Of a stretch of 64,000 bases of DNA, positions 1 to 57,242 are shown piece by piece. This stretch comes from Mustelus asterias (Eukaryota): assembly GCF_964213995.1 (NCBI RefSeq), contig NC_135820.1, positions 3,534,001 to 3,598,000 of the forward strand. The letters are read 5' to 3'. A model generated the notes under the pieces. It was not told where the DNA came from. It worked only from the letters and a program-made list of their open reading frames with translations, and did no database searches. Position numbers and translations under genes: made by a program. Each line of letters begins with the position of its first letter. Position 1 is the first letter of the stretch.

Positions 1-560
1 AAAATCAAGTTCCAGAATACTGATTAGAATGCGAATCCCTAAAGCCAGCCAGGTCTTAAAGGTACAGACAATGTGGGTGGAGGGAGCATTAAACACAGGT
101 TAAAGAGATGTGTATTGTCTCCAGGCAGAACAGCTAGTGAGATTCTGCAAGCCCAGGAGGCAAGCTGTGGGGGTTACTGATAATGTGACATAAATCCAAC
201 ATCCCGGTTTAGGCCGTCCTCATGTGTGCAGAACTTGGCTATCAGTTTCTGCTCAGCGACTCTGCGCTGTCGTGTGTCGTGAAGGCCGCCTTGGAGAACG
301 CTTACCTGAAGATCCAAGGCTGAATGCCCGTGACTGCTGAAGTGCTCCCCCACAGGAAGAGAACAGTCTTGCCTGGTGATTGTCGAGCGGTGTTCATTCA
401 TCCGTTGTCGTAGCGTCTGCATGGTTTCCCCAATGTACCATGCCTCGGGACACCCTTTCCTGCAGCGTATCAGGTGGACAATGAATTCCTGTGGTCGACT
501 CTTGCAACTCGGCCAACATTGTCTACCTGATACGCTGCAGGAAAGGGTGTCCCGAGGCAT
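1..560 (-). mobile_element. Penelope-like element 3' fragment (GIY-YIG endonuclease C-terminal region) with a 5' fold-back
   Basis: ORF 174..560(-) contains CPEAWYIGETMQTLRQRMNEH...EQKLIAKF..H.DGLNRD, typical of Penelope GIY-YIG; 440-483 and 517-560 form an inverted repeat. Confidence 0.85.
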
Positions 561-1744
561 GTGACACTAATAAATAAAGTTAAACTTCAAAGTTTCCCTC
601 ATATCTGCAATTTCCCAGTCCTGGGTGACAACATCCTCATAAATCTTCTCTGCACTCTCTTGAGTGAAACTGTATCCTTTCTGTGACAAGGCAACCAGAA
701 CTGTACAAAGCGCTCATGTTGTGACCTAACTAATGTTTTCTACAATTCCAGCATAACCTCCCTCCTCTTATATTCTGTACCACTGCTAATAAATGAAAAG
801 ATTCCACGTTCCCCGATCACCTCATCAGCCTGTCCTGATGCATTTTGGAATCTGTGGATACTAATAAATAAACATTAAACTTTAAAAAACTTTTGTTACT
901 CATGGAGTAAAAAGAGGATCAAGAAGGGCCTATGAATAAACTGATCTGAAAATGGGCAGTGTGAGGTTGGGTAAATATACTGATTCGTGAGAGGAATGTG
1001 AGACAAGTTCAAACACCTACGCAGTGGACTATAATCGACAATAAGGAAACAGGAGAGTTGTTAACGAATGTCTTGTGTCCACTTTCACTGCAGAGCAACC
1101 TGAAAGTGAGATCAGGGGCCCAAATTCAGTGGAGTCATTTGTGTTGAAAGATTGGCAGTGGAGTAAATCAAGTTTGGGGAATCTCTGTCAGTTGTGGGGA
1201 AGTGGCTGGGATCTATCATTAAGGATAAGCAGCTGTCTAAGTTCATAGTGATCAGTGAGTGCGGGTATGGGTGATTTACACTGTTGGATGTGTCTGGCGA
1301 AGCCTGTGTTGATTGTTATTTGAGGAAGTCACAAATCACCAGAGAGGAGAATATCGGTGCAACCTGCTGAGTTCACCCAACAGTCATCTGATAAAATCCA
1401 CTCACGAAATTGTCAGATTATTCAGAAAAAAATGAGGAAGTTGGAGGGGAATAAATAGATAGAAGGAGGAGTAGGCCATTCGGCCCTTCGAGCCTGCTCC
1501 GCCTTTCATTTTGATCATGGCTCATCATCAAATTCAATATCCTGATTCCCTCCCCTTCCTCCCATATCCCTCAATCCTTTTAGCCAAGAGCTATATCTAA
1601 TTTCATCTTGAAATCACAGAACGTTTTGGCCAAAACTACACTCTGTGGTAGTGAATTCCACACATTCACCACCCTCTGGGTGAAGAAATTTCTCCTCACC
1701 AAGACAGATAGATAGGCTGAGGGGTATGCAGAGAGATGGATATG

Positions 1745-5125: not shown

Positions 5126-6645
5126 TTCAAACTTTCCCTCCTCGCTGCAATTTCCCAGTCCTGGGTGACAACATCCTCATAAATCTTCCCTGCACCCTCT
5201 TGAGTGAAACTGTATCCTTTCTGTGACAAGGCAACCAGAGCTGTACAAAGCGCTCATGTTGTGGCCTAACTAATGTTTTATACAATTCCAGCATAACCTC
5301 CCTACTCTTATATTCTGTACCACTGCTAATAAATGAAAAGATTCCACGTTCCCCGATCACCTCATCAGCCTGTTCTGATGCATTCCGGGATCTGTGGACA
5401 CTAATAAATAAACATTAAACTTTAAAAAACTTTTGTTACTCATGGAGTAAAAAGAGGATCAAGAAGGGCCTATGAATAAACTGATCTGAAAACGGGCAGT
5501 GTGAGGTTGGGTCGATATAGTGCTTTGTGAGAGGAATGTGAGACAAGTTCAAACACCTACGCAGTGGACTATAATCGACAATAAGGAAACGGGAGAGTTG
5601 TTAATGAATGTCTTGTGTCCACTTTCACAGCAGAGCAACCTGAAAGTGAGATCAGGGGCCCAAATTCAGTGGAGTCATTTGTGTTGAAAGATTGGCAGTG
5701 GAGTAAATCAAGTTTGGGGAATCTCTGTCAGTTGTCGGGAAGTGGCTGGGATCTATCATTAAGGATAAGCAGCTGTCTAAGTTCATAGTGATCAGTGGGT
5801 GCGGGTATGGGTGATTTACACTGTTGGATGTGTCTGGCGAAGCCTGTGTTGATTGTTATTTGAGGAAGTCACAAATCACCAGAGAGGAGAATATCGGTGC
5901 AACCTACTGAGTTCACCCAACAGTCATCTGATAAAATCCACTCACGCAATTGTCAGATTATTCAGAAACAAATGAGGAAGTAGGAGGGGAATAAATAGAT
6001 AGAAGGAGGAGTAGGCCATTCGGCCCTTCGAGCCTGCTCTGCCTTTCATTTTGACCATTGCTGATCATCGAAGTCAATATCCTGATTCCCTCCCCTTCCT
6101 CCCATATCCCTCGATCCCTTTAGCCCCTAGAGCGATGTCTAATTTCATCTTGAAATCACACAACATTTTGGCCTCAACTACTTTCTGTGGTAGTGAATTC
6201 CACACATTCACCACCCTCTGGGTGAAGAAATTTCTACTCACCTAGATAGATAGATAGGCCGAGAGATATGCAGAGAGATGGATATGCAAAGAGATGGATA
6301 TGCAAAGAGATGGATATGCAAAGAGATGGTTATGCCCAGAAATGGATATGCAGAGAGATAGATAGATAGATAAATAAAAGATAGATAGATAACAGACATG
6401 TTGGATGATTGTTAGGGAGACAGATGAATGGAGAGACGAGCGGATGGATGAATGGAGGGAAAGAAGACTGGGCAGATGGGCAGACAGGGAGATAAGTAGA
6501 TAGACATGGCAGGTAGATAGATATGACAGACAGGCCGGCTATGTTATTAATTGTCCTCAAGCAAAGAACTTTAATTCAACCTGAGAATGCATGTCATAGA
6601 ATAGAACCTCAGAATCCCTACAGCGCAGAAGAAGGCCATTCGGCC

Positions 6646-8097
6646 AGGTGAGGTCCCTGAGGATTGGAGGATAGCGAATGTGGTCCCGTTGTTTAAGAAG
6701 GGTAGCAGGGATAACCCAGGAAATTATAGGCCGGTGAGCTTGATGTTCGTGGTAGGGAAGTTGTTGGAGAGGATTCTTAGAGACAGGATGTATGTGCATT
6801 TAGAACAGAACAATCTCATTAGTGACAGACAGCATGGTTTTGTAAGAGGGAGGTCGTGCCTTACAAATTTGGTAGAGTTTTTTGAGGAAGTGACAAAAAC
6901 GGTTGATGAAGGAAGGGCCGTGGATGTCGTCTATATGGATTTCAGTAAGGCATTTGACAAAGTCCCAAATGGCAGGTTGGTTAAGAAGGTTAAGGCTCAT
7001 GGGATGCAAGGAGAAGTGGCTAGGTGGGTGGAGAACTGGCTTGGCCATAGGAGACAGAGGGTAGTGGTCGAAGGGTCTTTTTCCGACTGGAGGTCTGTGA
7101 CCAGTGGTGTTCCGCAGGGCTCTGTACTGGGACCTCTGCTATTTGTGATATATATAAATGATTTGGAAGAAGGTGTAACTGGTGTAATCAGCAAGTTTGC
7201 GGATGACACGAAGATGGCTGGACTTGCGGATAGCGAAGAGCATTGTCGGGCAATACAGCAGGATATAGATAGGCTGGAAAATTGGGCGGAGAGGTGGCAG
7301 ATGGAGTTTAATCCGGATAAATGCGAAGTGATGCATTTTGGAAGAAATATTGTAGGGAGGAGTTATACAATAAATGGCAGAGCCATCAGGAGTATAGAAA
7401 CACAGAGGGACCTAGGTGTGCAAGTCCACAAATCCTTGAAGGTGGCAACACAGGTGGAGAAGGTGGTGAAGAAGGCATATGGTATGCTTGCCTTTATAGG
7501 ACGGGGTATAGAGTATAAAAGCTGGAGTCTGGTGATGCAGCTGTATAGAACGCTGGTTAGGCCACATTTGGAGTACTGCGTCCAGTTCTGGTTGCCGCAC
7601 TACCAGAAGGACGTGGAGGCATTAGAGAGAGTGCAGAGAAGGTTTACCTGGATGTTGCCTGGTATGGAGGGTCTTAGCTATGAGGAGAGATTGGGTAAAC
7701 TGGGGTTGTTCTCCCTGGAAAGACGGAGAATGAGGGGAGATCTAATAGAGGTGTACAAGATTATGAAGGGGATAGATAGGGTGAACGGTGGGAAACTTTT
7801 TCCCAGATCAGAAGTGACGTTCACGAGGGGTCACGGGCTCAAGGTGAGAGGGGCGAAGTATAACTCAGATATTAGAGGGATGTTTTTTACACAGAGGGTG
7901 GTGGGGGCCTGGAATGCGCTGCCAAGTAGGGTGGTGGAGGCAGGCACGCTGACATCGTTTAAGACTTACCTGGGTAGTCACATGAGCAGACTGGGAATGG
8001 AGGGATACAAACGATTGGTCTAGTTGGACCAAGGAGTGGCACAGGCTGGGGGGCCGAAGGGCCTGTTTCCTGTGCTGTACTGTTCTTTGTTCTTTGT
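6646..8097 (+). mobile_element. Young 5'-truncated CR1 LINE with an uninterrupted 447-codon RT C-terminal ORF (6680-8023)
   Basis: [30 protein letters not shown] and KFADDTK motifs; (TTCTTTG)n tail; inserted in a SINE tail that is uninterrupted in copy A. Confidence 0.95.
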
Positions 8098-14320: not shown

Positions 14321-15794
14321 GGGGTGGCACGGTGGCACAGTGGTTAGCACTGCTGCATCACAGTGCCAGGGACCCAAGTTCAATTCCAGCCATGGGTCAC
14401 TGTCTGTGTGGAGTTTGCACATTCTCCCCGTGTGTTTGACCCGGGTGCTCCGGTTTCCTCCTACAATCCAAAGATGTACAGACTGCAGGGTTGACCATGC
14501 TAAATTGCCACTTAGGAACCAAGGATGTGCAGGTTAGATGGATTGGTCATGCTAAATTGCCCCTTCATGTCCAAAACGTACAGGTTAAGTGGATTGGCTG
14601 TGCTAAATTGACCCTTGGTGTCCAAAGATGTGTAGGTTAGGTGGATTGGCCATGTTAAATTGCACCTTAGTTTCGAAAGATGTGCAGGTTATGTGTATTG
14701 GTCATGCTAACTTGCTCCTTAGTGACCAAAGATGTCCAGGTTGGGTGGACTGGCCATGATAAATTGCCCCTAAGTGTCCAAAGATGTGCAGGTTAGATGG
14801 ATTGGTCATGCTAAATTGTTCCGTAGTGTCCAAAGATGTGCAGGTTAGGGTGGATTGGCCACGGTAAATTGCCCCTTAGTGTCTAAAGATGTGAAGGTTA
14901 GGTGGATTGCCCATGTTAAATTACGTGTTACTGTCCAAAGATGTGCAGGTTCGGTGGATTGGCCATGCTGAATTGCCCCTTAGTGTCCAAAGATGTGTAG
15001 GTTAAGTGGATTAGCCATGCTAAATTGCCCCTTAGTGTCCAAAGATGTGCAGGTTTGGTGGATTGGCCATGCTGAATTGTCCCTTAGTGTCCAAAGGTGT
15101 GCAGGTTCGGTGGATTGGCCATGCTAAATGGCCGAGAAGGGTCCAAAGATGTGCAGGTTAGGTGGATTGGCCATGCTAAATTGCCACTAAGTAACCAAAG
15201 ATGTGCAGGTTAGGTGGATTTGTAATGCTAAATTGCCCGGAAGTGTCCAAAGATGTGCAGGTTAGTTGAATTGGCCAGGCACGTTGTCCCTTCGTGTCAT
15301 AAAATGTGCAGGTTAGGTGGATTGGCCTTGCTAAACTGCTCCTTAGTGTCCAAAGGTATGCAGGTTAGGTGGATTGGCCATGCTAAATTGCCACTAAGTA
15401 ACCAAAGATGTGCAGGTTAGGTGGATTTGTAATGCTAAATTGCCCGGAAGTGTCCAAAGATGTGCAGGTTAGTTGAATTGGCCAGGCACGTTGTCCCTTC
15501 GTGTCATAAGATGTGCAGGTTAGGTGGATTGGCCTTGCTAAACTGCTCCTTAGTGTCCAAAGGTATGCAGGTTAGGTGGATTGGCCATGCTAAATTGCCC
15601 GGAAGGATCCTAAGATGTGCATGTTCGGTGCATTGGCCATGCAAATTGCCCCTTACTGTCCAAAGATGTGCAGGTTAGGTGGATTGGCCATGCTAAATTG
15701 TCTGTTTGTGTCCAAAGATGTGCAGGTTAGGTGGATTGGTTATGCTAAATTGCCCCTTAGTGTTCAAAGGTGTGCAGGTTAGGTGGATTGGCCA
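14321..15794 (+). repeat. SINE head followed by a tandem array (~25 units) of the 52-bp SINE core
   Basis: Unit ccaaagatgtgcaggttaggtggattggccatgctaaattgccccttagtgt repeated 14467-15794; internal ~207-bp re-duplication (15181 vs 15388). Confidence 0.92.
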
Positions 15795-19165: not shown

Positions 19166-19169
19166 AATA

Positions 19170-19708
19170 TATAAAAGCAGGAAGGCAATGCTGGAATTGC
19201 ACAAAATGTTAGTTAGGCCACAACTTGAGCTCTCTGTGCAGTTCTATCACCTCATTACAGAAAGGGTATAATTTCATTAGAGAGGGTACAGAGGAGATTC
19301 ACAAGGATGTTGCCACTCAGGACTGGGAAATTGCAGCTGGATGGAAGATCAGATAGGCTGGGGGTCTTCTCCTTGGAGGGTGAGGGGATATTGGATTGAG
19401 GTGCACAAAATTGTGAGGGGGTCTGGGTAGAATGGACGGTAAGTGCTTACTTACTTCAGGCAAGAGGTCAGTGACTGGGGGAGCAATGGTTCAAAGTGAT
19501 TGGTAGAAAGATTGGAGGGGAGATGAGGAAGTATTTTTCACCCAGGAGGATGTGGATGTCTGGAACTCAACGACTTGAAAGAGACAGAAACCTCTCAGTC
19601 TTATCTTAAAGGTGTCTGGATTTGTATCTAACCTGCAGGGCTATGGACCAAATGTGGGAAAGTGGGGCTTGGCTGGGGAGCTCATATCTCAGTCAGTGCA
19701 CAGATGAT
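19170..19708 (+). mobile_element. Old CR1 3' fragment (resumes at 20044-20090)
   Basis: Degenerate LVRPQLE..ERVQRRFTRMLP; the 3' UTR cagacgatgggc(t)gagtggc is split by the U2-headed insert. Confidence 0.75.
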
Positions 19709-19711
19709 CAG

Positions 19712-20044
19712 ATCGCTTCTCGGCCTTTTGGCTAAGATCAAGTGTAGCATGGAGAGGATGCTGCACTTGGTTGAGGTCATTAGGTTACGCTGAGGCTTCA
19801 TATGTTTCATATGAAGCAATTTTTAAAAGCGGCATCTCGGCCTTTTGGCTAAGATGCAAATGAGCCCAAGTCTTGAAGGAGGAACCTCTCCCTTCTGCAA
19901 TCAGCTTGGCTCATGTAGATCAGGCCCAGGACAGGGTGGTTTAGTCGCTCGCCCTGTCTTGTCAGCCTGGATCGGAAATGTCTCAACTTGTTGAGACTCT
20001 GAATTGGATTTGATTTGATTGAATTGGAAAAGTATTAAAAAAAA
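19712..20044 (+). mobile_element. U2 snRNA-headed structured retroposon (SINEU-like, or a retrocopy of a U2-derived RNA)
   Basis: U2 nt 1-36 at 19712-19747; second U2 stem-loop I at 19835-19855; A8 tail at 20037-20044; 18-bp TSD agtcagtgcacagaYgat at 19691-19708 and 20044-20061. Confidence 0.8.
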
Positions 20045-20570
20045 GTCAGTGCACAGACGATGGGCTGAGTGGCTTTTCTGTGCTGTAAAAGGCAGCCAAT
20101 GATTCAAAGTTGATGGAAGTGCAAAATGTTTATATATATATATATTTCTATATATATATTTATTTTTAACTGCAGTCACGTGTCTAACAGCACAGTGAAT
20201 AGCAGCTTGCAAAATAACAATGTTGACACTTTGTAAGGTTACCATGATTAGCTTATCTCCGGCCCACTAACTGCTCTTCATCGACTTGGTCTCACACTTT
20301 AGATTGTGGGGAGCAGATTAGGTTGGCAGTTTGAATGCACACTGTTCCTTCCGTCACAACTCTACACAGCCTTGGAAACAAAACACTTGTTTAGTGCACT
20401 TTATTTCATCACCTCTCTCTTTGCCTCTTGTGTGACCAAATTTGGAAGTAAAGAAAGAAGCCTCATCATTTCTCAAGCGGATGGAAGATTGGGCAGGTTT
20501 ATATCCAGCCTACGCCCCTTTCTGGATGCCCAATGCCCCTGATTGTCAGCACTTCAACGCGATGGCACAG

Positions 20571-21290: not shown

Positions 21291-21579
21291 AAGCTCTCAA
21301 AGAGGCGTTCGCAGTGTGGGTGGTATTAGTACTGGGGATGGGAGGCTGGGGCTGGCGATGGGGGCCGGGTCCCAATTCTCAGACTCCCCTTAACTGTCGC
21401 CTCTAGATGGTCCCAATAGAACGTCTCAAAATTATTCAGCATCCTTGTCAGAGAGGTTTTAGCGACATTGACATTTTATAGCCCATTTCTCAGTCCTCCT
21501 CAATCCACTGGGGGTCAAGTTTTACAGGTAGTTAGGACATCATTCGCTAAGTTGAAAAGAAAATTCTTGTATCCAATTT

Positions 21580-22310
21580 TTGATTTGATTTATTGTTGTC
21601 ACATGTATTAGGATCCAGTGAAAAGTATTTTTTGTTGCGCGTTATACAGACAAAGCATGCCATTCATAGAGTACATAGGGGAGAAGGAAATGAGAGAGTG
21701 CAGAATGTAGTGTTACAGCCATAGCAAGGGTGTAGAGAAAGATCAACTTAATATATGGTAGGTCCATTCAGAAGTCTGATGGCAGCAGAGAAGAAACTGT
21801 TCTTGAGTCGATTGATACGTGATCTCAGGCTTTTGTATCTTTTTCCCGACAGAAGAAGGTGGAAGAGAGTATGTCCGGGGTGCGTGGGGTCCTTGATTAT
21901 ACTGACAGCTTTTCCGAGGCAGTGTGAAGTGTAGATGGAGTCAGTAGATGGGAGGCTGGTTTGCGTGATGGACTGGACTATGTTGCCAATCCTTTGAGGT
22001 TATTTGCGGTCTTGGGCAGAGCAGGAGCCATACCGAGCGATGATACATCCGGAAAGCATGCTTTTTATGATGCATCTGTAAAAATTGGTGAGAGTTGTGG
22101 TGGACATGCAAAATTTCCTTAGTCTCCTGTGAAATTAGAGACATTGGTTGGTTTTCTTAACTATAGTGTCGGCGTGGAGGGACCAGGACAGATTGTTTGT
22201 GATCTGGACACCTAGAAACTTGAAGCTCTTGACCATTTCCACTTCATCCCTGTTGATGGAGACAGGGGCATGTTCTTCACTGCACTTCCTGAAGTCAATG
22301 ACTATCTCCT
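21580..22310 (-). mobile_element. Rex/Babar-like LINE 3' fragment
   Basis: KEIVIDFRK...VEMVKSFKFLGVQITNNLSWSLH; tail tgtgacaacaataaatcaaatc. Confidence 0.8.
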
Positions 22311-22892
22311 TCCTTTTAATTTCAGCTTCATTGGTGATTTGCAGACGGACCCCACTGAGGGTAAAGCTAATTGATCTCTGCGTGAAGATGCACAATTAAA
22401 CGGGAAGCTTTCTGAAGGTGATTTACTCCAAACTCCAATGTTGCGAATACCAGTGAGTAACGTTATATGGAGAGACTGCAGAAGCTGGGTTGGCTCTCCC
22501 GACCATCAGGGAAATTAGAGATGGTGAAACTCTTTCTGGGTCCTCGTGGTGTTGTGGGTTGGATGGTGACACAATGGTATTGTCACTGGAGGGGCAACAA
22601 TGTGGATTTTCTGTGTAACTTTTCTCTGGATCTATGGTCAGAGCTGAAGACAACAGGAAATATGATGAGGTTTCTACTGTTGTGGGGGAGTGGGGGAGGT
22701 GGAGCTGGAAAAGTGGGGCTGGGTAGAGGGCCAGTGATAAGTGGTGGCAAGGGAGCAACTGACAAAGACGTCCTGGACAACAAGACAAAGGGATTGCAAA
22801 TGGTCGTGGTCATGGCTTGGAAGGGTGCTGATAGCCGCCATTAAGAGATCAGAATGTGGAAACGACAGAACAACGGTACGCAATGTGACAAA

Positions 22893-23340
22893 GGACAATA
22901 CAGTGGTACAGTGGTTAGCACTGCTACCTCACAGTGCCAGGGTCCCAGGTTCAAGTCCAGCCTCGGGTCACTGTCTGTGCGGAGTGTGCATGTTCTCCAC
23001 GTGTCTGCGTGGGTTTCCTCCGGGCACTCCAGTTTCCTCCCACACTCCAAAGATGTGTAGGTTAGGTGGATTGGCCATGTTAAATTGCTCCTTAGTCTCC
23101 CAAAACATGTAGGTTCGGTGGATTTACTATGCTAACTTGCCACTTTGTATCCAATGATGTCTAGCTTTGGTGGATTGGCCATGCTGAATTGCCCCTTAGT
23201 GTCCAAAGATGTGCAGGTTAGGTGGATTGGCCATGGTGAATGTTTAGGATTATGGTGATAGAGCGGGGTGTGGGCCTGTATAAGATGCTCTTTCTGAGAG
23301 GCAGGGCCGAATGGCCTTCTGCACTGCAGGCATTCAATGG
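22893..23340 (+). mobile_element. HE1-like SINE with ~4 tandem core units
   Basis: Head, repeated core and tail. Confidence 0.85.
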
Positions 23341-25945: not shown

Positions 25946-26456
25946 TGTGCTGGATAATGAAGTGATGCCCCATCAGTTGCATATGTCGCGGCTGCTCTCT
26001 GCTGCAGGAGGAAGGATTGGAAATGTACCCCAGAGACTGAGAGAATGTTGCCCACTTTACCAGCAGAGCCTTGTCTCAGTGTGGCTGCACTTGTGTTCGA
26101 TTCAAAGAAACCTGTGCAGGAATCGCTGGGAGAAATGATTCTCCAACGCCGGTATCTCATCACAGTATTCTCCGGCCTCACCTGCGGCTGGGATTCTCCA
26201 GACCCGCTGCTGTGGACAGGGATTTGGCTGAGTGCCAAATTTTCCATTCTCGCTGCCAGCGGACCGGAGAATTCTGGTCAGTGATACCGCCACGGTTTAG
26301 AATGTCCCTTTTACGGATGCTCCTGGAGTAATTCCGTGCAGTTGCACTTTCTAAACTGTTTAGGATTTGCTGGTTCAGTGAGAGTTTGATCCGGATTGAG
26401 AGTAATCCGGCTCCGAGAATGTTTCCTAATGGCCTCAATGCTTGTTGTTCTTGCAG

Positions 26457-26795
26457 TTGCTGCCAGTGACCAGGTTACAGGTGTGACACTCACTGCTTTT
26501 GCTGGGGCGAGGGTGCTGCTCCCGTGCCAGGGAACAGGATACAACACAACATTGGTGTACGTTGCCTGGAAGAAGGAGACTGAAGAGAATGATATCGCTG
26601 TGAACAGCCCTCGGAACGGGACAAGCATCCCAAATGCACATTATTCCAGTCGCATGGTTTTCAGAAACAATTCCCCGTTGGATGGATCCATTGTATTAAA
26701 TTCTTTGGAAATGCAGGATGAGGGAATGTATATTTGTGAGCTCTCTTTATTCGCTCAGAGAATACAAAGGAAAACCATGAATTTGACAGTTGTAG
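26457..26795 (+). CDS. Ig V-set domain exon of a nectin/PVR/CD96-like cell-surface protein
   Basis: Acceptor cttgttgttcttgcag, donor G|gtatgt, phase 1-1, 339 nt; VLLPC...VAW...DGSIVL...DEGMYICE...NLTVV with the canonical Cys, Trp and DxGxYxC. Confidence 0.9.
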
Positions 26796-27077
26796 GTATG
26801 TATTTTCCCAGGAGCACTGTTGATGCGTGGGGGTAAGTGTGATAATCATGCAGAGGATGGGGGGTGGGTCGGGGGAGGGGGGCGGTGGGGGGGTGGTGGG
26901 CAGTGTATTGGATTGTGCATCCAGGTGAAAACTTAATACCTCTGCAATCATCACCAGAATATTGCTGCATCATTCTAATGTTTGAATCCAGCCACATTCT
27001 AGCTCATATTTGTATCAGAGAGGTTTTAATTAAATATCTGTTTCGTGGTTGCGAAGTGGTTGTGAGTGGAAGCTGGG

Positions 27078-36180: not shown

Positions 36181-37269
36181 GAGGTAGGTTGCCCAAACAC
36201 GGCATATATAGACAGAGACACAATTGCAAGATAATTACAGATTGGATTGTGAAGAATGATTGGAATGCGAGTCTTTCCAGGTAGTCAAGTCTTTACAGGT
36301 ACAAACAGTATGAGTGGGGAGAGGGGTAATCACAGGTTAAAGAGGTGTGAATTGTCTCAAGTCAGGACAATTAGTCGGATTTTACAAACCCAGGCAGTAT
36401 GGTGGGGGTTTACATGTAGAGTGACGTGAACCCAATATCCCGGCTGAGGCTGTCATCATGCGGACAGAAATTGGCGATCAGTTTCTGCTCGGCGATTCTG
36501 CGTTGTCGTGTGTCTTGAAGACAGCCTTGGAAAACGCTTACCCGAAGATGGGAGGCTGAATGCTCTTGACTGCTGAAGTGTTTCCCGACTGGAAGGGAAC
36601 ACTCCTGTCTGTCGATTGTTGTGTGGTGTCCGTTCGTCGCCTCACAGTGCCAGGGGCCCGGGTTCGATTCCCGGCTTGAGTCACTGTCTGTGCAGAGTCT
36701 GCATGTTCTCCCCTCGTCTGTGTGGGTTTCCTCCGGGTGCTCCGGTTTCCTCCCACAGTTTGAAAGACACGCTGGTTGGGTGCATTGGCCGTGCTAAATT
36801 CTTCCTCAATGTCCCCGACCAGGCACCAGAGTGCGGCGACGAGGGGATTTTCACAGTAACTTCATTGCAGTGTTCATGTAAGCCTATTTGTGACACTAAT
36901 AAATAAACTTTAAAAACTATTTGCAGCAAATTAAATCCATGGCTCGTTCAGTTATCAAGTTGATATTTTGCACTGAATGATTGGTGTTTTGCGCTCAAGG
37001 GGATTGGTATTGTCACTGGGCTAGTAATCCAGAGAGACAGGACAGGATCTGGGCACACGGATTCAAATCCCACCACGGCAGACGGTGAAACTTCAATTCA
37101 ATTCAATAAAAAGTCTCATGAAATTGATTGTCGGAAAAATCCATCTGGTTCACTAATATCCTTCAGGGAAGGAAATCTGCCATCCTGACCTGGTCTGGCC
37201 TACAAATGACTCCTGATCCAGATGGTTGACACTCAGCTGCCCTCTGCATTTTGGAAGGTCCTAAGCATG

Positions 37270-38010: not shown

Positions 38011-39377
38011 TTTTTTTCAATGGAGGGCAGTTAGGGGTGGACATTAATTGGACCCAGACAACAACGCCCACATCCTCTGAGTGAATAAAAGAAAACAAAA
38101 TCTCCCAATGAAGAAGCAGATCAATAATTTTTATTATTATTCTCTGTCTTTTCCATTCAGGGATCGATAAATGTTTTCTGGGTTAGATTGTCAAGTTGTG
38201 GAGCCAAGCAAGCTTGTGTCAAATCAGCCATACTTGATTGAACTGTGGAACAGTCTCAAGGGGCTGAATGGCCTCCTGAATCTTCTTACATAGTTCCTTG
38301 TGAGCATTAGGGAAAAGTCTGAATTTCCTTGCAGAAAGCAATGATGATGTTTTATAAATGTCATTAATTTAGATATTTGACAGGAGTGAGAAGATTTTTT
38401 TTTGCAATCCACGTACACACACCCACAGGTATTAGTGCAAAAGGTAATGAAGAAAGTCAATGAAATGTTGGTCTTTGTCTCAAGGTGTTTGGAATACCTT
38501 GTGAATCAGTTAAGGGCTACCGCCAGTAATTTTACTCTGCAGTGACCACATTGAGTTCTGAGCATCACATATCAAGAAGGAGACATTCAAGGATACGGGA
38601 CAAGTGCAGGAAAGTAGGAGCGTGACTTTATTGGCAGTTCTTGTCGGTGCAAACTCGAAGGGCCGAAATGCCTTTTCTGCACAGTACGATTCTATGACTC
38701 TCTGCACATGTGTGCCCCAAAGAGATGCTGAAATTAGATCAAGCATTTTTATTATTAAAGACAGGGGGTAACGCCATTGTCCATCCTGCATAGAGTAACC
38801 ACCTGTTTTCAGGTGAACTCCTCTGAGCCCAAGCAATTGGAGTCTCGCTCAACCCCTATCTCCGTCCAACCAAAACCCCTTCGACCTCAGATGAACCCAC
38901 TCCATGGAAACACACAATCCTATCTCAACCTGTTCCACTTCAACCTCGAACACAATCCAACTGCCGTCGACGCATTTTTAAAAAATATTGTTTTGTAGGA
39001 CATGGGCGTCACTGGCTGGCCAGCATCGGGCAGTTGCGGGTCAACCACATTGCTGTGGCTCTGGAGTCACACGTTGGCCAGACCTGGGAAAGACAACAGA
39101 TTTCCTTCCCTAAAAAGACATGAGTGAGCCAGTTAGGTTTTTCCAACAATTGACAACAGTTGCATGGCATTCGGTAGATTCTTAATTCCAGATCTTTTGT
39201 ATTGAATTCAATTTCCACCACCTGCCGCGGCAGGTCGATTGGCCATGTGAAATTACCACTTGGTGTCCAAAGATGTGTAGGTTAGCTGGATTGGCCATGG
39301 TAAATTACCCTTACTGTCCAAAGATGTGCAGGTTAGATGGATTGGCCACGCTAAATTACCCTGACTGTCCAAAGATG

Positions 39378-40563
39378 CAGTAAGAAGTTTAACAACACCA
39401 GGTTAAAGTCCAACAGGTTTATTTGGTAGCAAGAGCCACACAAGCTTTCGGAGCTGCAAGCCCCTTCTTCAGGTGAGTGGGAATTCTGTTCACAAACAGA
39501 GCATATAAAGACACAGACTCAATTTACATGAATAATGGTTGGAATGCGAATACTTACAACTAATCAAGTCTTTAAGAAACAAAACAATGTGAGTGGAGAG
39601 AGCATCAAGACAGGCTAAAAAGATGTGCATTGTCTCCAGACAAGACAGCCAGTGAAACTCTGTGGGGGTTACAGATAGTGTGACATGAACCCAATGTCCC
39701 GGTTGAGGCCATCCTCGTGTGTGCGGAACTTGGCTATCAGTTTCTGCTCAGCGACTCTGCGCCGTCGTGTGTCGCGAAGGCCGCCTTGGAGAACGCTTAC
39801 CCGAATATCAGAGGCCGAATGCCCGTGACCGCTGAAGTGCTCCCCAACAGGAAGAGAACAGTCTTGCCTGGTGATTGTCGAGCGGTGTTCATTCATCCGT
39901 TGTCGCCGCGCCTGCATAGTTTCCCCAATGTACCATGCCTCGGGACACCCTGAGGCATGTCCCGAGGCATGGTACATTGGGGAAACTATGCAGGCGCGGC
40001 GACAACGGATGAATGAACACCGCTCGACAATCACCAGGCAAGACTGTTCTCTTCCTGTTGGGGAGCACTTCAGCGGTCACGGGCATTCGGCCTCTGATAT
40101 TCGGGTAAGCGTTCTCCAAGGCGGCCTTCGCGACACACGACGGCGCAGAGTTGCTGAGCAGAAACTGATAGCCAAGTTCCGCACACACGAGGACGGCCTC
40201 AACCGGGACATTGGGTTCATGTCACACTATCTGTAACCCCAATAGAGTTTCACTGGCAGTCTTGTCTGGAGACAATACACATCTTTTTAGCCTGTCTTGA
40301 TGCTCTCTCCACTCACATTGTTTTGTTTCTTAAAGACTTGATTAGTTGTAAGTATTCGCATTCCAACCATTATTCATGTAAATTGAGTCTGTGTCTTCAT
40401 ATGCTCTGTTTGTGAACAGAATTCCCACTCACCTGAAGAAGGGGCTTGCAGCTCCGAAAGCTTGTGTGGCTTTTGCTACCAAATAAACCTGTTGGACTTT
40501 AACCTGGTGTTGTTAAACTTCTTACTGTGTTTACCCCAGTCCAACGCCGGCATCTCCACATCA
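39378..40563. mobile_element. Palindromic Penelope-like insertion (570-bp arms, 10-nt spacer) inside a SINE-core array
   Basis: Arms 39378-39947 and 39958-40527; mirror ORFs 39669-40034(-) and 39871-40236(+); flanking tgtccaaagatg at 39366-39377 and 40564-40575. Confidence 0.95.
40425..40469 (+). ncRNA. Minimal hammerhead motif (mirror copy at 39436-39480 on the minus strand)
   Basis: ccactcac CTGAAGA a GGGGC ttgca GCTCC GAAA GCTT gtgtgg. Confidence 0.65.
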
Positions 40564-40822
40564 TGTCCAAAGATGTGCAGGTTAGGTGGATTGGCCATGC
40601 CAAATTGCCGCTTGGTATCAAAAGATGTGTAGGCTATGTGGATTGGCCATGCTAAATTGCCCCTTAGTGTCAAATGATGTGTAGGTTCGGAGGATTGGCC
40701 ATGATAAGTTGCCCTTAGATGCTCAGAGTTGTGCAGATAAAGTGGTTTGGCCATGCTAAATTGCCCCTTGGTGTCCAAAGATGAGTAGTTAGTTGGATTT
40801 GCCATGCTAAATTGCCCCTTAG

Positions 40823-43440
40823 TTTGATTTGATTGATTATTTTGATCTGATTTATTATTTTATTTGATTTGATTTATTATTGTGACATGTATTAACATAC
40901 AGTGAAACATATTGTTTCTTATGCACTATACAGACAAAACACATTGTTCATAGGAAACGAGAGAGTGCAGAATGTTGTGTTACAGTCACAGCTAGGGTGT
41001 AGAGAAAGATCAAATTAATGCAAGGGAAGTCCATTCAAAAGTCTGACAGCAGCAGGGAAGAAGCTGTTCTTGAGTCATAGAACATAGAACATAGAACATT
41101 ACAGCGCAGTACAGGCCCTTTGGCCCTCGATGTTGCGCCGACCAGTGAAACCAATCTAAAGCCCATCGAACATACACTATTCCATTATCATCCATATGTT
41201 TATCCAATGACCATTTAAATGCCCTTCATGTTGGCGAGTCCACTACTGCTGCAGGCAGGGCATTCCACACCCTTACCACTCTCTGAGTGAAGAACCTACC
41301 TCTGACATCTGTCCTATATATATATCACCCCTCAATTTAAAGCTATGTCCCCTCGTGCTAGCTATCACCATCCGAGGAAAAAGGCTCTCTCTATCCACCC
41401 TATCTAATCCTCTGATCATATTGTATGCCTCTATTAATTCACCTCTTGACCTTCTTCTCTCTAACGAAAACAACCTCAAGTCCCTCAGCCTTTCCTCATA
41501 AGACCTTCCCACCATACCAGGCAACATCCTAGTAAATCTCCTCTGCACCCTTTCCAATGCATCCACATCCTTCCTATAATGCGGTGGCCAGAACTGGACG
41601 CAATACTCCAAGTGCGGCCGCACCAGAGTTTTATACAGCTGCAACATGATCTCCTGGCTCCGAAACTCAATCCCTCTACCAATAAAGCTAACACTCCATC
41701 CGCCTCCTCAACAACCCTATCAGCCTGGTTGCCAACTTTCATGGATCTATGCACATGGACACCGAGATCTCTCTGTTCATCCACACTACCAAGTATCTTA
41801 CCATTAGCCCAGTACTCTGTAATCCTGTTAGTCCTATCAAAGTGAATCACCTCACACTTTTCCGCATTGAACTCCATTTGCCACCTCTCAGCCCAGCACT
41901 GCAGCTTATCTATGTCCCTCTTTCACCTGCAACAACCTTCCGCACTGTCCACAACTCCACCGACTTTAGTGTCATCCGCAAATTTACTAACCCATCCTCT
42001 ACGCCCTCATCCAGGTCATTTATAAAAATGACAAACAGCAGTGGCCCCAAAACAGATCCTTGCGGTACACCACTAGTTACTGAACTCCAGGATGAACATT
42101 TCCCATCAACCACCACCCTCTGTCTTCTTACAGCTAGCCAATTCCTGATCCAAACCGCTAAATCACCCTCAATCCCATGTCTCCGTATCTTCTGCAATAG
42201 CTTACCGTGGGGAACCTTATCAAACGCTTTACTGAAATCCATATACACCACATCAACTGCTTTACCCTCATCCACCTCAAAGAACTCAATAAGGTTTGTG
42301 AGGCACGACCTACCCTTCACAAAACCGTGTTGACTATCCCTAATCAAATTATTCCTTTCTAGATGATTATAAATCTTATCTCTTATAATCCTTCCCAAAA
42401 CTTTGCCCACGACAGAAGTAAGGCTCACTGGTCTATAATTACCAGGGTTGTCTCTACTTCCCTTCTTGAACAAGGGGACAACATTTGCTCTCCTCCAGTC
42501 TTCTGGCACTATTCCTGTAGACAATGACGACCTAAAAATCAAAGCCAAAGGCTCTGCAATCTCTTCCCGAGCCTCCCAGAGAATCCTGGGATAAATCCCA
42601 TCCAATCCAGGGGATTTATCTGTTTTCACACTTTCGAGAATTGCTAACACCTCCTCCTTATTAACCTCAATCCCGTCTAGTCCAATAGCCTGTATCTCAG
42701 CATTCTCCTTGACAACATTGTCTTTTTCCTGCACGAATACTGACGAAAAATATTCATTCAGTGCCTCTCCTATCTCTTCGGCCTCCACACACAACTTCCC
42801 ACCACTGTCCCTGACATGCCCTAATCTTACCCAAGTCATGTTTTTATTGCTGACATACCTATAGAAAGCTTTAGAGTTTTTCCTTGATCCTACCTGCCAA
42901 AGACTTCTCATGTCCCCTCCTGGCTCTTCCTAACTCTCTCTTTCGGTCCTTCCTGGCTAACTTGTAACTCTCAAGCACCCTAACTGAACCTTCACATCTC
43001 ATATTCACATAGGTCTCCTTCTTCCTCTTCACAAGAGATTCAACTTCTTTAGTAAACCACGGTCCCCTTACTCGACCATTTCCTCCCTGCCTGACAGGTA
43101 CATACTTATCAAGGACACCCAGCAGCTGTTCCTTGAACAAGCTCCACATTTCAATTGTGTCCATCCCCTTCTGGTTGGAACGTGACCTCAGACTTTTGTA
43201 TCTTTTTCCCAAAGGAAGAAGGTGGAAGAGAGAATGTCCAGGGTGCGTGGGGTCATTAATTATGCTGGCTGCTTTGCTGAGGCAGCGGGAAGAGTAGACA
43301 GAGTCAATGGATGGGAGGCTGGTTTGTGTGATGGATTGGGCTACATTCACGATCTTTTGTAGTTCCTTGCGGTCTTGGGCAGAGCAGGAGCCATACCAAG
43401 CTGTGATACAACCAGAAAGAATGTGTTCTATGGTGCATTC
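40823..43440 (-). mobile_element. Rex/Babar-like LINE fragment (40823-41076 and 43169-43440) split by a nested CR1
   Basis: IEHILSGCITAWYGSCSAQDRKELQ; the sequence ttgagtc|..ggttggaacgtg resumes after the CR1. Confidence 0.8.
41077..43168 (-). mobile_element. ~2.1-kb CR1 LINE, frameshifted
   Basis: [29 protein letters not shown] and [10 protein letters not shown] motifs; (TTCTATG)n tail at 41077-41098. Confidence 0.93.
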
Positions 43441-45381: not shown

Positions 45382-46790
45382 GGGGCGGCACAGTGGCACC
45401 GTGGTTGCCAGTGCAACCTCACAGCACCAGAGAGAAAAGTTTGAATGCAGCCTTGGGTGACTGTCTGTGTGGAGTTTGCACATTCTCCGAAGTCCGTGTG
45501 GATTTCGTCCGGGTGCTCCAGTTTTCTCCCACACTCCAAAGATGTGCAGGTTAGGTGGATTGGCCATGCTAAATTGCCCCTTAGTGTCCAAAGATGTGTA
45601 GGTTAGGTGCATTGGCCATGCTAAATTGCCCCTTACTGTCCTAAGATATATCCGTTAGTGGGATTGGCCATGCTAAATTGCCTCTTAATGTCAAACGATG
45701 TCTAGTTAAGTGGATTGGCCATGCAAAATTGCCCCTTAGTGTCCAAAGGTGTGTAGGTTAGGTGCATTGGCCATGCTAAATTGCCCCTTACTGTCCCAAG
45801 GTATGTATGTTCGTGGGATTGGCCATGCTAAATTGCCTCTTCGTGTCAAATGATGTCTAGTTAAGTGGATTGGCCATGCTAAATTGCCCCTTAGTGTCCA
45901 AAGGCATGGAGGTTAGGTGAATTTGCCATGCTAAATTTCCCCTTCCTGTCCCAAGATATGTACGTTCGTGGGATTGGCCATGCTAAATTGCCTCTTAGTG
46001 TCCAAAGATCTGCAGGTTTGGTGGATTGGCCATGCTAAATTGTCCCTTAGTGTCAAACGATGTCTAGTCAAGTGGGTTGGCCATGTGAAATTGTCCCTTA
46101 GTGTCCAAAGGTGTGTAGGTTAGGTGCATTGGCCATGCTAAATTGCCTTTTCGTGTCGAAAGATGTGCAGGTTCGGTGGATTGGCCATGCTATATTGCCT
46201 CTTAGTGTCAAACGATGTCTAGTTAAGTGGATTGGCCATGCTAAATTGCCCCTTATTGTCCAAAGGTGTGTAGGTTAGGTGAATTTGCCATGCTAAATTG
46301 CCCCTTACTGTCCCAAGATATGTACGTTCGTGGGATTGGCCATACTAAATTGCCTCTTAGTGTCCAAAGATCTGCAGGTTTGGTGGATTGGCCATGCTAA
46401 ATTGTCCCTTCGTGTCCAAAGGTGTGTAGGTTAGGTGCATTGGCCATGCTAAATTGTCCCTTCGTGTCCAAAGGTGTGTAGGTTAGGTGCTTTGGCCATG
46501 CTAAATTGTCCCTTCGTGTCCAAAGGTGTGTAGGTTAGGTGCATTGGCCATGCTAAATTGCCCCTTACTGTCCCAAGATATGTACGTTCGTGGGATTGGC
46601 CATGCTAAATTGCCTCTTAGTGTCAAACAATGTCCAGTTAAGTGGATTGGCCATGCTAAATTGCCCCTTTGTGTCCAAAGATGACGAGGTGGATTGGCTA
46701 TTATCAATGCGTGGGTTTACAGGATTGGACTCTTTTGGAGGGTCGGTGCGCACTCAATGGGCTGAATGGCCTCCTTCTGCAGTGTTGAGA
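45382..46790 (+). repeat. SINE with an internal tandem array (~22 x 51-52 bp) of its core
   Basis: Head 45382-45535, array 45535-46700, tail to ~46785; recurring unit variants. Confidence 0.92.
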
Positions 46791-50241: not shown

Positions 50242-51146
50242 TTAATGAGGGGAATAAACACAGATGAGAGTGAAGGGATATTTCACCGCCGTCTTCAGTT
50301 GCTCTCTGACCTTCCTCTGGGTCAGTGCATAAACAGCGGTGTTGGTGCAGGAGCTCAGGTAGAACAGCATTGTCCCGGTGTAATCCGCGATAATAACCGG
50401 GTGGTTGAAACTCGGGTAAACATGCCTGTTCGATATCTTCATCAGTAAGAAAATAACAATCTTGGTCATCCACAGAAATATAAAACTGCCCGAGACAACA
50501 AACAACAGCATGATGGACCTCCGCCTGTTGGCCACCTCTGCATCTTCTCTCTGCTCCCCCTTACTGGAAGCCCGGAGACTCCTGCGGGCTCGATTGGCCA
50601 GCACAATGTGTCTGACCGTCAGAGCGTTGAACAACAGGATCAGCAGGTAGGGGATCAATGGGTTCAGCAGGTGGTGAAGCCAGAAAAATGCCACCCATCC
50701 TGGCAAGGTGAAGGAATCTAGTCTGGTGGCACAGCCCCAGGGTACACTGCCCAATGTGCCGACGGATTGGTATCTGAAGTAAAAAGGGACGTTCCTCACA
50801 ATGTTCACCAGGGAGACGGTGGTTATCACCGCCACCGCTGCCTTCTGGGTGCAGTATCTGGCTTTCAGATTGTGGCAACAAATGGCCACATAACGGTCAA
50901 TGGTGAAAGCGATGGTGAGCCAGACGGAGCAGTCTATAGCAGCGTAGCTCAGCACAGTGACAGTGCGGCACACCGCCGTGTAGCGCAAGAATGAGAATGG
51001 GAAATACATGGTTCCAAGTAAAAGGTCTACCGCAGTGAAGAAAATGACCAGGAGATCTGCTGTCGCCATCGAGACCAGGTAGATAGCAACACCTTTACCC
51101 AGGCCGCACTTTCCCCGAGACAGAATTGCGATCGTCACCAAATTTG
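50242..51146 (-). CDS. GPR139/GPR142-like class A GPCR, exon 2 (end of TM1 to C-terminus)
   Basis: Acceptor tttctcaacttgccttccag, phase 1; ANLVTIAILSRGKCGL, YLVSMATADLL, SVWLTIAFTIDRYVAIC and SSCTNTAVY motifs; open to the stop at 50242; 324 aa when joined to exon 1. Confidence 0.92.
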
Positions 51147-51359
51147 CTGGAAGGCAAGTTGAGAAATGTTGAATGTTGAGGAGGATGATGACCCAGTGAA
51201 AATTGAGTCCTCGATAAATATTGTCACAGTGAGTTACAGTTAATACTGACCTCAGAGGCACAAATCTATGGACAACTTCTGCAATGATCTCATAGGAAAG
51301 GGTTAATTAACATAAGGGTGAAAAATACAAGAAAAATATAAGAATATAAGTGTTGTGCA

Positions 51360-56306: not shown

Positions 56307-57242
56307 GGGTGCGCCGTAAGGCTGTGTCCTCAGCCCCTTATTCTACTCCTTATACACCTCTGACTGTCTGGCCAAGTTCCCCTCCAACTCGATCTTTAGG
56401 TTTGCTGATGACATCACCATAGTGAGTCGGATCTCAAACAATGACGAGACAGAGTACAGGAACAAGATAGAGAATCTGGTGAGCTGGTGCAACGGCAATA
56501 ATATCTCTCTCAATCTCTCCCTCAAAACGAAGGAGAGAGGCATTGACTTCAGGAAGTATAGTGCAGGACATGCCCCTGCCAACAGGGATGAAGTGGAAAT
56601 GGTCGAGAGCTTCATGTATTTAGGTGTCCAGTTTGCCAACAACCCGTCCTGGTCCCTCCATGCCGATGCTATGATTAAGAAAGCCCACCAACGCCTCTAC
56701 TTTCAAAGGAGGCTAAGGAAATTTGGCATGTCCACTACGACTCTCACCAACTTTTACAGATGCACCAAAGAAAGCATCCTTTCTGGTTGTATCACAGCTT
56801 GATATGGCTCCTGCTCTGCCCAAGACCGCAACAAAGAACAAAACGTCGTGAATGTAGCCCATCCATCACGCAAAACCAGCCTCCCATCCATTGACTCTGT
56901 CTACACTTCCCGCTGCCTCGGAAAAGCAGCCAACATGATCAATGACCCCATGCACCCCGGACATTCTCTCTTCCACCTTCTTCCATCGGGAAAAAGACAC
57001 AAAACTCTGAGGTCACTGACCACTGACTCAAGAACAGCTTCTTCCCTGCTGCCATCAGACTTTTGAATGGACCTACCTTGCATTAAGTTGATCTTTCTCT
57101 ACACCCTAGCTATTACTGTAACACTACATTCTGCACTCTCTCCTTTCCTTCTCTATGAATGGTGTGCTTTGTCTGTATATTGTGCAAGAACAATACTTTT
57201 CACTGCATCCCAATACATGTGACAATAATAAATCAAATCAAA
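56307..57242 (+). mobile_element. Rex/Babar-like LINE 3' fragment
   Basis: LSPLFYSLYT..RFADDIT; IDFRK; KKAHQRLYF; tail catgtgacaataataaatcaaatc. Confidence 0.85.

Follow-up and report, generated by a model that had tools for sequence, protein, structure and literature searches.

The window, the whole 64-kb stretch of shark DNA (Mustelus asterias) analysed here, contains a non-coding insert of 335 nt between two target site duplications (TSDs). It comprises a head derived from U2 small nuclear RNA (snRNA), a body, a second and diverged U2 5′ fragment, further hairpins and a run of seven to eight A residues (Table 1). Because of the TSD, the A-run and a clean empty site, the feature is recognised as a target-primed insertion into an older LINE, in the 3′ UTR of a CR1 element. 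At slightly better than even confidence, we lean towards the reading that it is a copy from an independently arisen SINEU-like retroposon family, which was moved in trans by a Tx1-clade LINE and whose RNA is predicted to fold back over its own U2 head. This family reading is favoured by the predicted structure, which goes beyond shuffled sequences and local controls even without the head and which a one-off fusion of U2 with a random RNA would not be expected to give. Against it stand the single copy in 64 kb, the CR1 tail as a target not known for Tx1, and the fact that no Tx1 partner was seen.

Table 1. Coordinates of the U2-headed insert, its parts and its host site in the window
Feature	Positions	Strand	Basis
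Host, left part: decayed CR1 LINE 3′ end (ORF2 end and 3′ UTR)	19169..19708	+	Identity of 60-79% with further CR1 copies of the window
Left TSD, 18 nt	19691..19708	+	17/18 identical to 20044-20061
Three extra bases preceding U2 nt 1; untemplated or short 5′ extension	19709..19711	+	Sequence
Head 1: U2 snRNA nt 1-38/39; branch-point-pairing hexamer carries a transition (nt 37)	19712..19750	+	Rfam RF00004 alignment
Antisense arm: degenerate reverse complement of U2 nt 11-39	19758..19786	+	Pairing count and helix probabilities
Perfect 10-bp hairpin	19795..19817	+	Sequence and predicted fold
Sm-like U-tract AAUUUUUAA, single-stranded, without consensus G	19818..19826	+	Unpaired probability 0.80-1.0; strict Sm pattern unmatched
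Head 2: another U2 5′ fragment covering nt 4-28, with weak similarity beyond	19832..19857	+	Alignment to head 1 and Rfam
Interrupted long hairpin	19860..19914	+	Predicted fold; 19831-19915 z -4.5
Long hairpin, 12-bp core 19927-38/19950-61	19921..19969	+	Predicted fold; 19916-20000 z -5.7
Short 3′ hairpin, 7-bp core	19973..20001	+	Predicted fold
AT-rich tail with GATTT repeats; ATTAAA runs into the A-run	20002..20036	+	Sequence
Poly(A) remnant: A7 and first A of right TSD	20037..20044	+	Sequence
Right TSD, 18 nt	20044..20061	+	Matches left TSD
Host CR1 3′ UTR, right part	20062..20120	+	Empty-site alignment

Insertion site and genomic surroundings

The 18-bp TSD that an earlier note on this DNA had described was recovered, with 14 of its positions as an exact match. 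At equal spacing, exact matches of at least 14 occurred in 43 of 3101 control pairs, and all 43 were located within three tandem arrays. The six other A-runs of at least eight residues in the window had no TSD of at least 10 in the same search. Once the insert and one repeat are taken out, the restored empty site can be aligned through the former junction to further CR1 tails of the window, and the proposed location inside a CR1 3′ UTR is thus confirmed. Together with the head found by Rfam, these observations bear out the previous description of a retroposed U2-headed element. Its terminal A8 is present as eight A residues at 20037-20044, but the last of these belongs to the right TSD. The three bases between the left TSD and U2 nt 1 (19709-19711) were absent from that description.

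The window consists of repeat-rich vertebrate DNA with CR1-type reverse transcriptase (RT) fragments (Pfam RVT_1) and dozens of tRNA-headed SINE copies, which we take to resemble HE1. HE1 is described as the V-SINE of sharks and rays (PMC3747384), and the abundance of CR1 likewise suggests a host from this group. A 52-nt unit derived from the middle of the tRNA-headed SINE forms tandem arrays at 14491-15794 and 45535-46683 (25 and 22 copies, respectively), with shorter arrays at 23046-23235, 39237-39377 and 40569-40823; the same internal segment of the SINE expands repeatedly in independent copies. A young CR1 copy at 6605-8023 (+) retains an uninterrupted 3′ portion of ORF2 of 472 codons with an RT domain. 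Further RT element fragments end in AAATC repeats (56524-57242 (+), 21579-22317 (-), 40863-41077 and 43182-43438) and are presumably Rex1/Babar-like. Read in antisense, their tails show a weak similarity to the final 35 nt of the insert, with a score of 39 that was reached by none of 12 shuffles (best shuffle 38). Repeated ORF fragments were also found at 39669-40236 (-), 174-566 (-) and 36410-36793 (-), the pair near 39669-40236 being a 160-nt tandem duplication. To us these look like the GIY-YIG endonuclease ends of Penelope-like elements; 174-566 had no Pfam match.

Cellular genes are represented by an exon encoding an Ig V-set domain at 26390-26836 (+) (Pfam E 4e-11), which resembles a nectin/CD226-type gene, and by an intronless ORF of 354 codons for a rhodopsin-family receptor at 50242-51306 (-) (7tm_1, E 5.9e-20). 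The Ig V-set gene may harbour the U2-headed insert in an intron, or the insert may be located upstream of it.

The U2 fragments and the predicted fold

The only Rfam match in the window at gathering score is the U2 match at 19712 (47.4 bits, gathering score 46), and the model aligns there from its position 1. The exact start at U2 nt 1 claimed before is therefore correct, but the head extends over 38/39 nt and not over 36. Compared with the U2 consensus, positions 1-36 of head 1 agree except for position 3, position 37 differs and positions 38-39 agree again; we assume that positions 1-36 are fully identical to vertebrate U2. The match is genuine for nt 1-39 only, the remainder of the Rfam alignment being forced. 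Copies like this insert pass the Rfam U2 threshold, so that automatic annotation would name them U2, and they inflate U2 gene counts.

The second, extended U2 stem-loop I that had been proposed was found at 19832-19855, where 23 of 24 positions are identical to head 1 nt 4-27 and where the Rfam search independently recovered U2 nt 7-26 (19.5 bits, E 0.058). One substitution and one insertion lengthen stem-loop I by 3 bp, and the predicted hairpin energy is -15.9 kcal/mol in head 2 compared with -8.2 kcal/mol for head 1 alone. An octamer-like sequence at 19854-19861 overlaps the end of head 2, probably by chance.

The + strand of the insert has a minimum free energy of -141.8 kcal/mol (z -8.9), which none of 100 shuffles equalled, and without its head the insert still reaches z -8.4. 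Controls were clearly less stable, with z values from +1.9 to -3.1 for 29 window segments and from +1.6 to -2.05 for eight local tRNA-SINE copies over both strands. The postulated highly structured RNA thus stands out, with z about -8 to -9 against -3.1 for the lowest of the 29 windows, and approximately 70% of the insert bases are paired in the predicted ensemble. Since the antisense strand of the insert also folds well (z -5.7 compared with -8.0 for the + strand), much of this structure may have originated from DNA inversion or duplication. A comparison of 19752-19800 with 19888-19931, made in view of a dimer origin, gave p 0.002-0.05 depending on the scoring, among 30 tests, and is a weak lead only. 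As to the individual stems, the perfect 10-bp hairpin at 19795-19817 was confirmed. The three further stems described earlier are predicted as hairpins, but pairing of 19980-87 with 19990-97 would leave a 2-nt loop, and this stem folds as 7 bp instead.

The arm at 19758-19786 is an antisense copy of the head, a relation that the earlier note missed. It pairs with U2 nt 11-39 at 18 of 29 positions through Watson-Crick and at seven through G-U pairs, the four mismatches forming two 2x2 loops. In the predicted fold, a rod at 19722-19786 encloses stem-loop I together with the U6-pairing segment and the branch-point hexamer, with helix probabilities of 0.89-1.0. In the predicted ensemble, native stem-loop I has a probability of 8e-6, and nt 33-38 have an unpaired probability of 0.0. 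Nucleotides 1-38 of U2 serve in U6 and branch-point pairing, and both U2 pieces are predicted to be inaccessible for either interaction. A 12-bp stem had been proposed over the branch-point hexamer; the hexamer is indeed changed and is predicted to be buried, but this stem contains one G-U pair and belongs to a longer helix of 15 bp (19736-50/19758-72) inside the rod.

The nt 37 change in head 1 pairs with the arm through Watson-Crick bonds. Each of the seven transitions in the arm leaves a G-U pair on the + strand, and no pair is lost through any of them (P ~0.02-0.03 under equal transition rates); this bias towards A-to-G and C-to-U changes could be due to editing of the RNA instead of selection. 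The arm departs from a perfect inverse of the head at 11 of 29 positions, whereas the TSDs differ at only 1 of 18, and the arm therefore evolved in a source element well before the present copy was inserted.

In agreement with the previous reading, the RNA is not a working U2, and a functional U2 variant was rejected. Nucleotide 37 is changed, the altered hexamer is predicted to be fully paired and stem-loop I to be buried, and no stem-loops II-IV were recognisable beyond nt 39, where Rfam detected only the second nt 7-26. The Sm-like site is single-stranded as claimed but lacks the consensus G, and the strict Sm pattern is not matched anywhere in the insert. By motif patterns, neither an upstream octamer, DSE or PSE nor a downstream 3′ box was found, the flanks being CR1. 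Simple patterns likewise gave no pol III A or B box within the insert, which has three T-runs of at least four residues. No other Rfam family matched the insert body above chance; mir-26 (16.4 bits), fiv_FSE (14.6 bits) and the HDV ribozyme (12.4 bits, E 7.5) were discarded as sub-threshold candidates.

The unpaired U-tract is located about 107 nt from the 5′ end, roughly at the Sm position of U2. Together with the start at U2 nt 1, the extensive pairing, the wobble-preserving bias and a body conserved in several organisms, this would suit a processed pseudogene of a cellular RNA gene, namely a lineage-specific U2-derived snRNA-like RNA with a U2 promoter and an Sm-type site that was retrocopied a few times. 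We consider such an origin quite improbable in view of the missing consensus G and of the AT-rich tail, whose ATTAAA running into poly(A) resembles the end of a retroposon and not that of a 3′-box-processed snRNA. Moreover, no Rfam family but U2 fits, and no source gene was seen.

Source, mobilisation and copies elsewhere

The insert's U2 head ends at nt 38/39, the insertion site shared by Keno (Tx1 clade) and Utopia (NeSL clade), two LINEs targeting U2 genes for which downstream U2 starts at nt 39 (PMC4640811; PMC6136364). This coincidence, too, had been overlooked in the earlier note. The boundary is not diagnostic, because SINEU-3 has a U2 head of 32 nt according to Kojima 2015 (PMC4494074) and U2 chimeras form by other routes; as SINEU-3 shows, similar head lengths arise without a Keno site. 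The same boundary would be expected of a non-autonomous element that arose by internal deletion from a Keno-type Tx1 LINE of U2 genes, in which U2 nt 1-38 is a co-transcribed leader, the body consists of the LINE 5′ and 3′ UTR and the present copy is off target. Poly(A) and a long TSD would be shared with such an element, some crocodilian Tx1-Mar LINEs carry U1 or U2 heads (PMC4494074), and a leader-complementary arm suits an element that always receives that leader. Nevertheless, this derivation is distinctly unlikely in our view. The longest stop-free frame in the insert has 61 codons on either strand, without an endonuclease or RT ORF or a remnant of one, and simple deletion would not be expected to leave a second U2 fragment inside the element. 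In addition, the nt 37 change that pairs with the arm suggests an inherited head and not one renewed from working U2 genes, unless this change is private to the copy.

Poly(A) combined with a long TSD indicates L1-clade machinery (PMC3747384), and sharks are reported to possess Tx1 but no full L1 in the whale shark paper (PMC8455134). Tx1 is therefore the likely mobilising partner, and the L1/Tx1-type machinery proposed previously is upheld, pointing to Tx1 in sharks.

For the preferred family reading, we propose the following course of events. A master copy located elsewhere would be a pol II transcription unit with its promoter upstream, in the simplest case that of a U2 gene, because the insert has only three bases ahead of U2 nt 1 and its head breaks off at the Keno/Utopia site. 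The simplest source would be a U2 locus interrupted at the Keno/Utopia site, with its RNA starting at U2 nt 1. The two heads may go back to a partial duplication or, as in SINEU-1, to 5′ sequence being added more than once, and the arm may have arisen as an inverted copy of the head with pairing kept at the RNA level, so that the RNA would not pair with U6 or branch points. A Tx1 endonuclease and RT, primed on the A-tail, would finally have inserted a promoterless dead copy.

In a more far-reaching version, which we regard as unlikely though worth stating, the masters of a shark family would parasitise U2 loci at the Keno site and borrow the U2 promoter, and the antisense clamp would mask the U2 leader so that the RNA spares splicing; in its strongest form, the source RNA would be a domesticated U2-derived small nuclear RNA. 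If true, this would answer how promoterless snRNA-headed SINEs are transcribed.

The start at U2 nt 1 and the switch to foreign sequence at the Keno site make master copies inside U2 loci directly testable. The antisense arm, in turn, suggests a means by which the RNA of a U2-like parasite could be kept from interfering with the spliceosome.

Beyond the window, which holds no second copy of the insert, an index of public runs was queried with 26 sampled words of the body (19748-20036). The index lists only runs that contain the query; the body was wholly or partly present in 20 of the 24 public runs listed, from 11 studies, with at least half of the words in six rows. In organisms A-F, 0.35-0.61 of the 26 words were found, equivalent to a divergence of roughly 1.6-3.3% on the assumption of evenly distributed changes. 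No RNA run was on record among the matches listed. Left out of the interpretation were run X17 (library line RNA-Seq, share 0.23), rows X9 and X16, for which an RNA source is a guess, rows X18-X20, which have small shares, and X8. The last of these is labelled as a hot springs metagenome and contains 0.39 of the body words, possibly through contamination or mislabelling. A hairpin motif scan of metagenome contigs returned 11 loci, none of which resembled the insert beyond the motif (best E 0.01), and these were dismissed as chance.

Runs with the body include deep ones of 2,100-2,400 million letters as well as assemblies of 33 million (X7) and 147-380 million letters (X5, X6 and X15; one study, two organisms). 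Its occurrence in such very small assemblies favours a repeat family over a single locus, although small assemblies can be chance picks, since only runs with matches are listed. As the word shares imply only low divergence, one orthologous insertion shared by close species could be the source of the deep-run matches. That divergence, the single copy in the window and the folding of the antisense strand are consistent with a one-off or very low-copy chimeric retrocopy, formed by an RT template switch from U2 to other RNAs with fold-back synthesis of the arm and then passed on as a single orthologous locus. In mammals, chimeras of U2 and LINE-1 form a known class (PMC13174262). Yet no fewer than five independent stems and two joins to U2 would have had to come about in a single event, the arm diverged long before this insertion, and the body appears in assemblies of only 33-380 million letters; we rate such a retrocopy as quite improbable.

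Comparison with known systems

No U2-headed retroposon from sharks was found in a literature search over listings and abstract openings, in a collection with few subscription papers or Repbase Reports, and the SINEs of cartilaginous fish in the literature found are tRNA-headed only. With U2 snRNA (RF00004), the insert shares nt 1-38/39 and a second nt 4-28, just above the gathering threshold, and differs from it by its poly(A) and TSD, its off-consensus Sm site and its altered, buried hexamer. Unlike Keno and Utopia, it lacks an ORF and the downstream U2 sequence from nt 39 onward and lies outside a U2 gene, with a TSD made of CR1 sequence. An in-situ copy of either element was rejected, as the TSD and tail of CR1 follow downstream and no endonuclease or RT ORF is present. 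The chimeric and tailless snRNA retropseudogenes of mammals (PMC13174262, PMC5322556) likewise have a sense 5′ piece of an snRNA heading a target-primed insertion with TSD. In contrast to these, the 3′ part of the insert has no counterpart among the LINEs and SINEs of the window; it is itself highly structured and includes an old antisense copy of the head.

The closest resemblance is to SINEU, which Kojima 2015 (PMC4494074) found only in crocodilians and whose transcription is named there as an open question. The traits in common are a length below 500 bp, the lack of coding capacity, a U2-derived 5′ head, a 3′ poly(A), internal oligo-T, the lack of pol III boxes, more than one snRNA fragment and probable mobilisation by Tx1. 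The differences are the host, a cartilaginous fish instead of crocodilians, the target, which is a CR1 3′ UTR (single site) and not Mariner-N4, the target preferred in crocodilians by both SINEU and its Tx1 partner, and the antisense arm pairing with the head, no such structure being described for SINEU in the text available (PMC4494074). An origin of the insert independent of crocodilian SINEU is likely. If the family is multi-copy, snRNA-headed SINEs would have originated a second time among vertebrates, independently and in cartilaginous fish. Recurrent 5′ U2 additions are reported for SINEU-1 (PMC4494074), and the two differently diverged heads of the insert match this pattern. By this analogy, the insert appears less unprecedented, as its two-head layout repeats an arrangement documented in SINEU-1.
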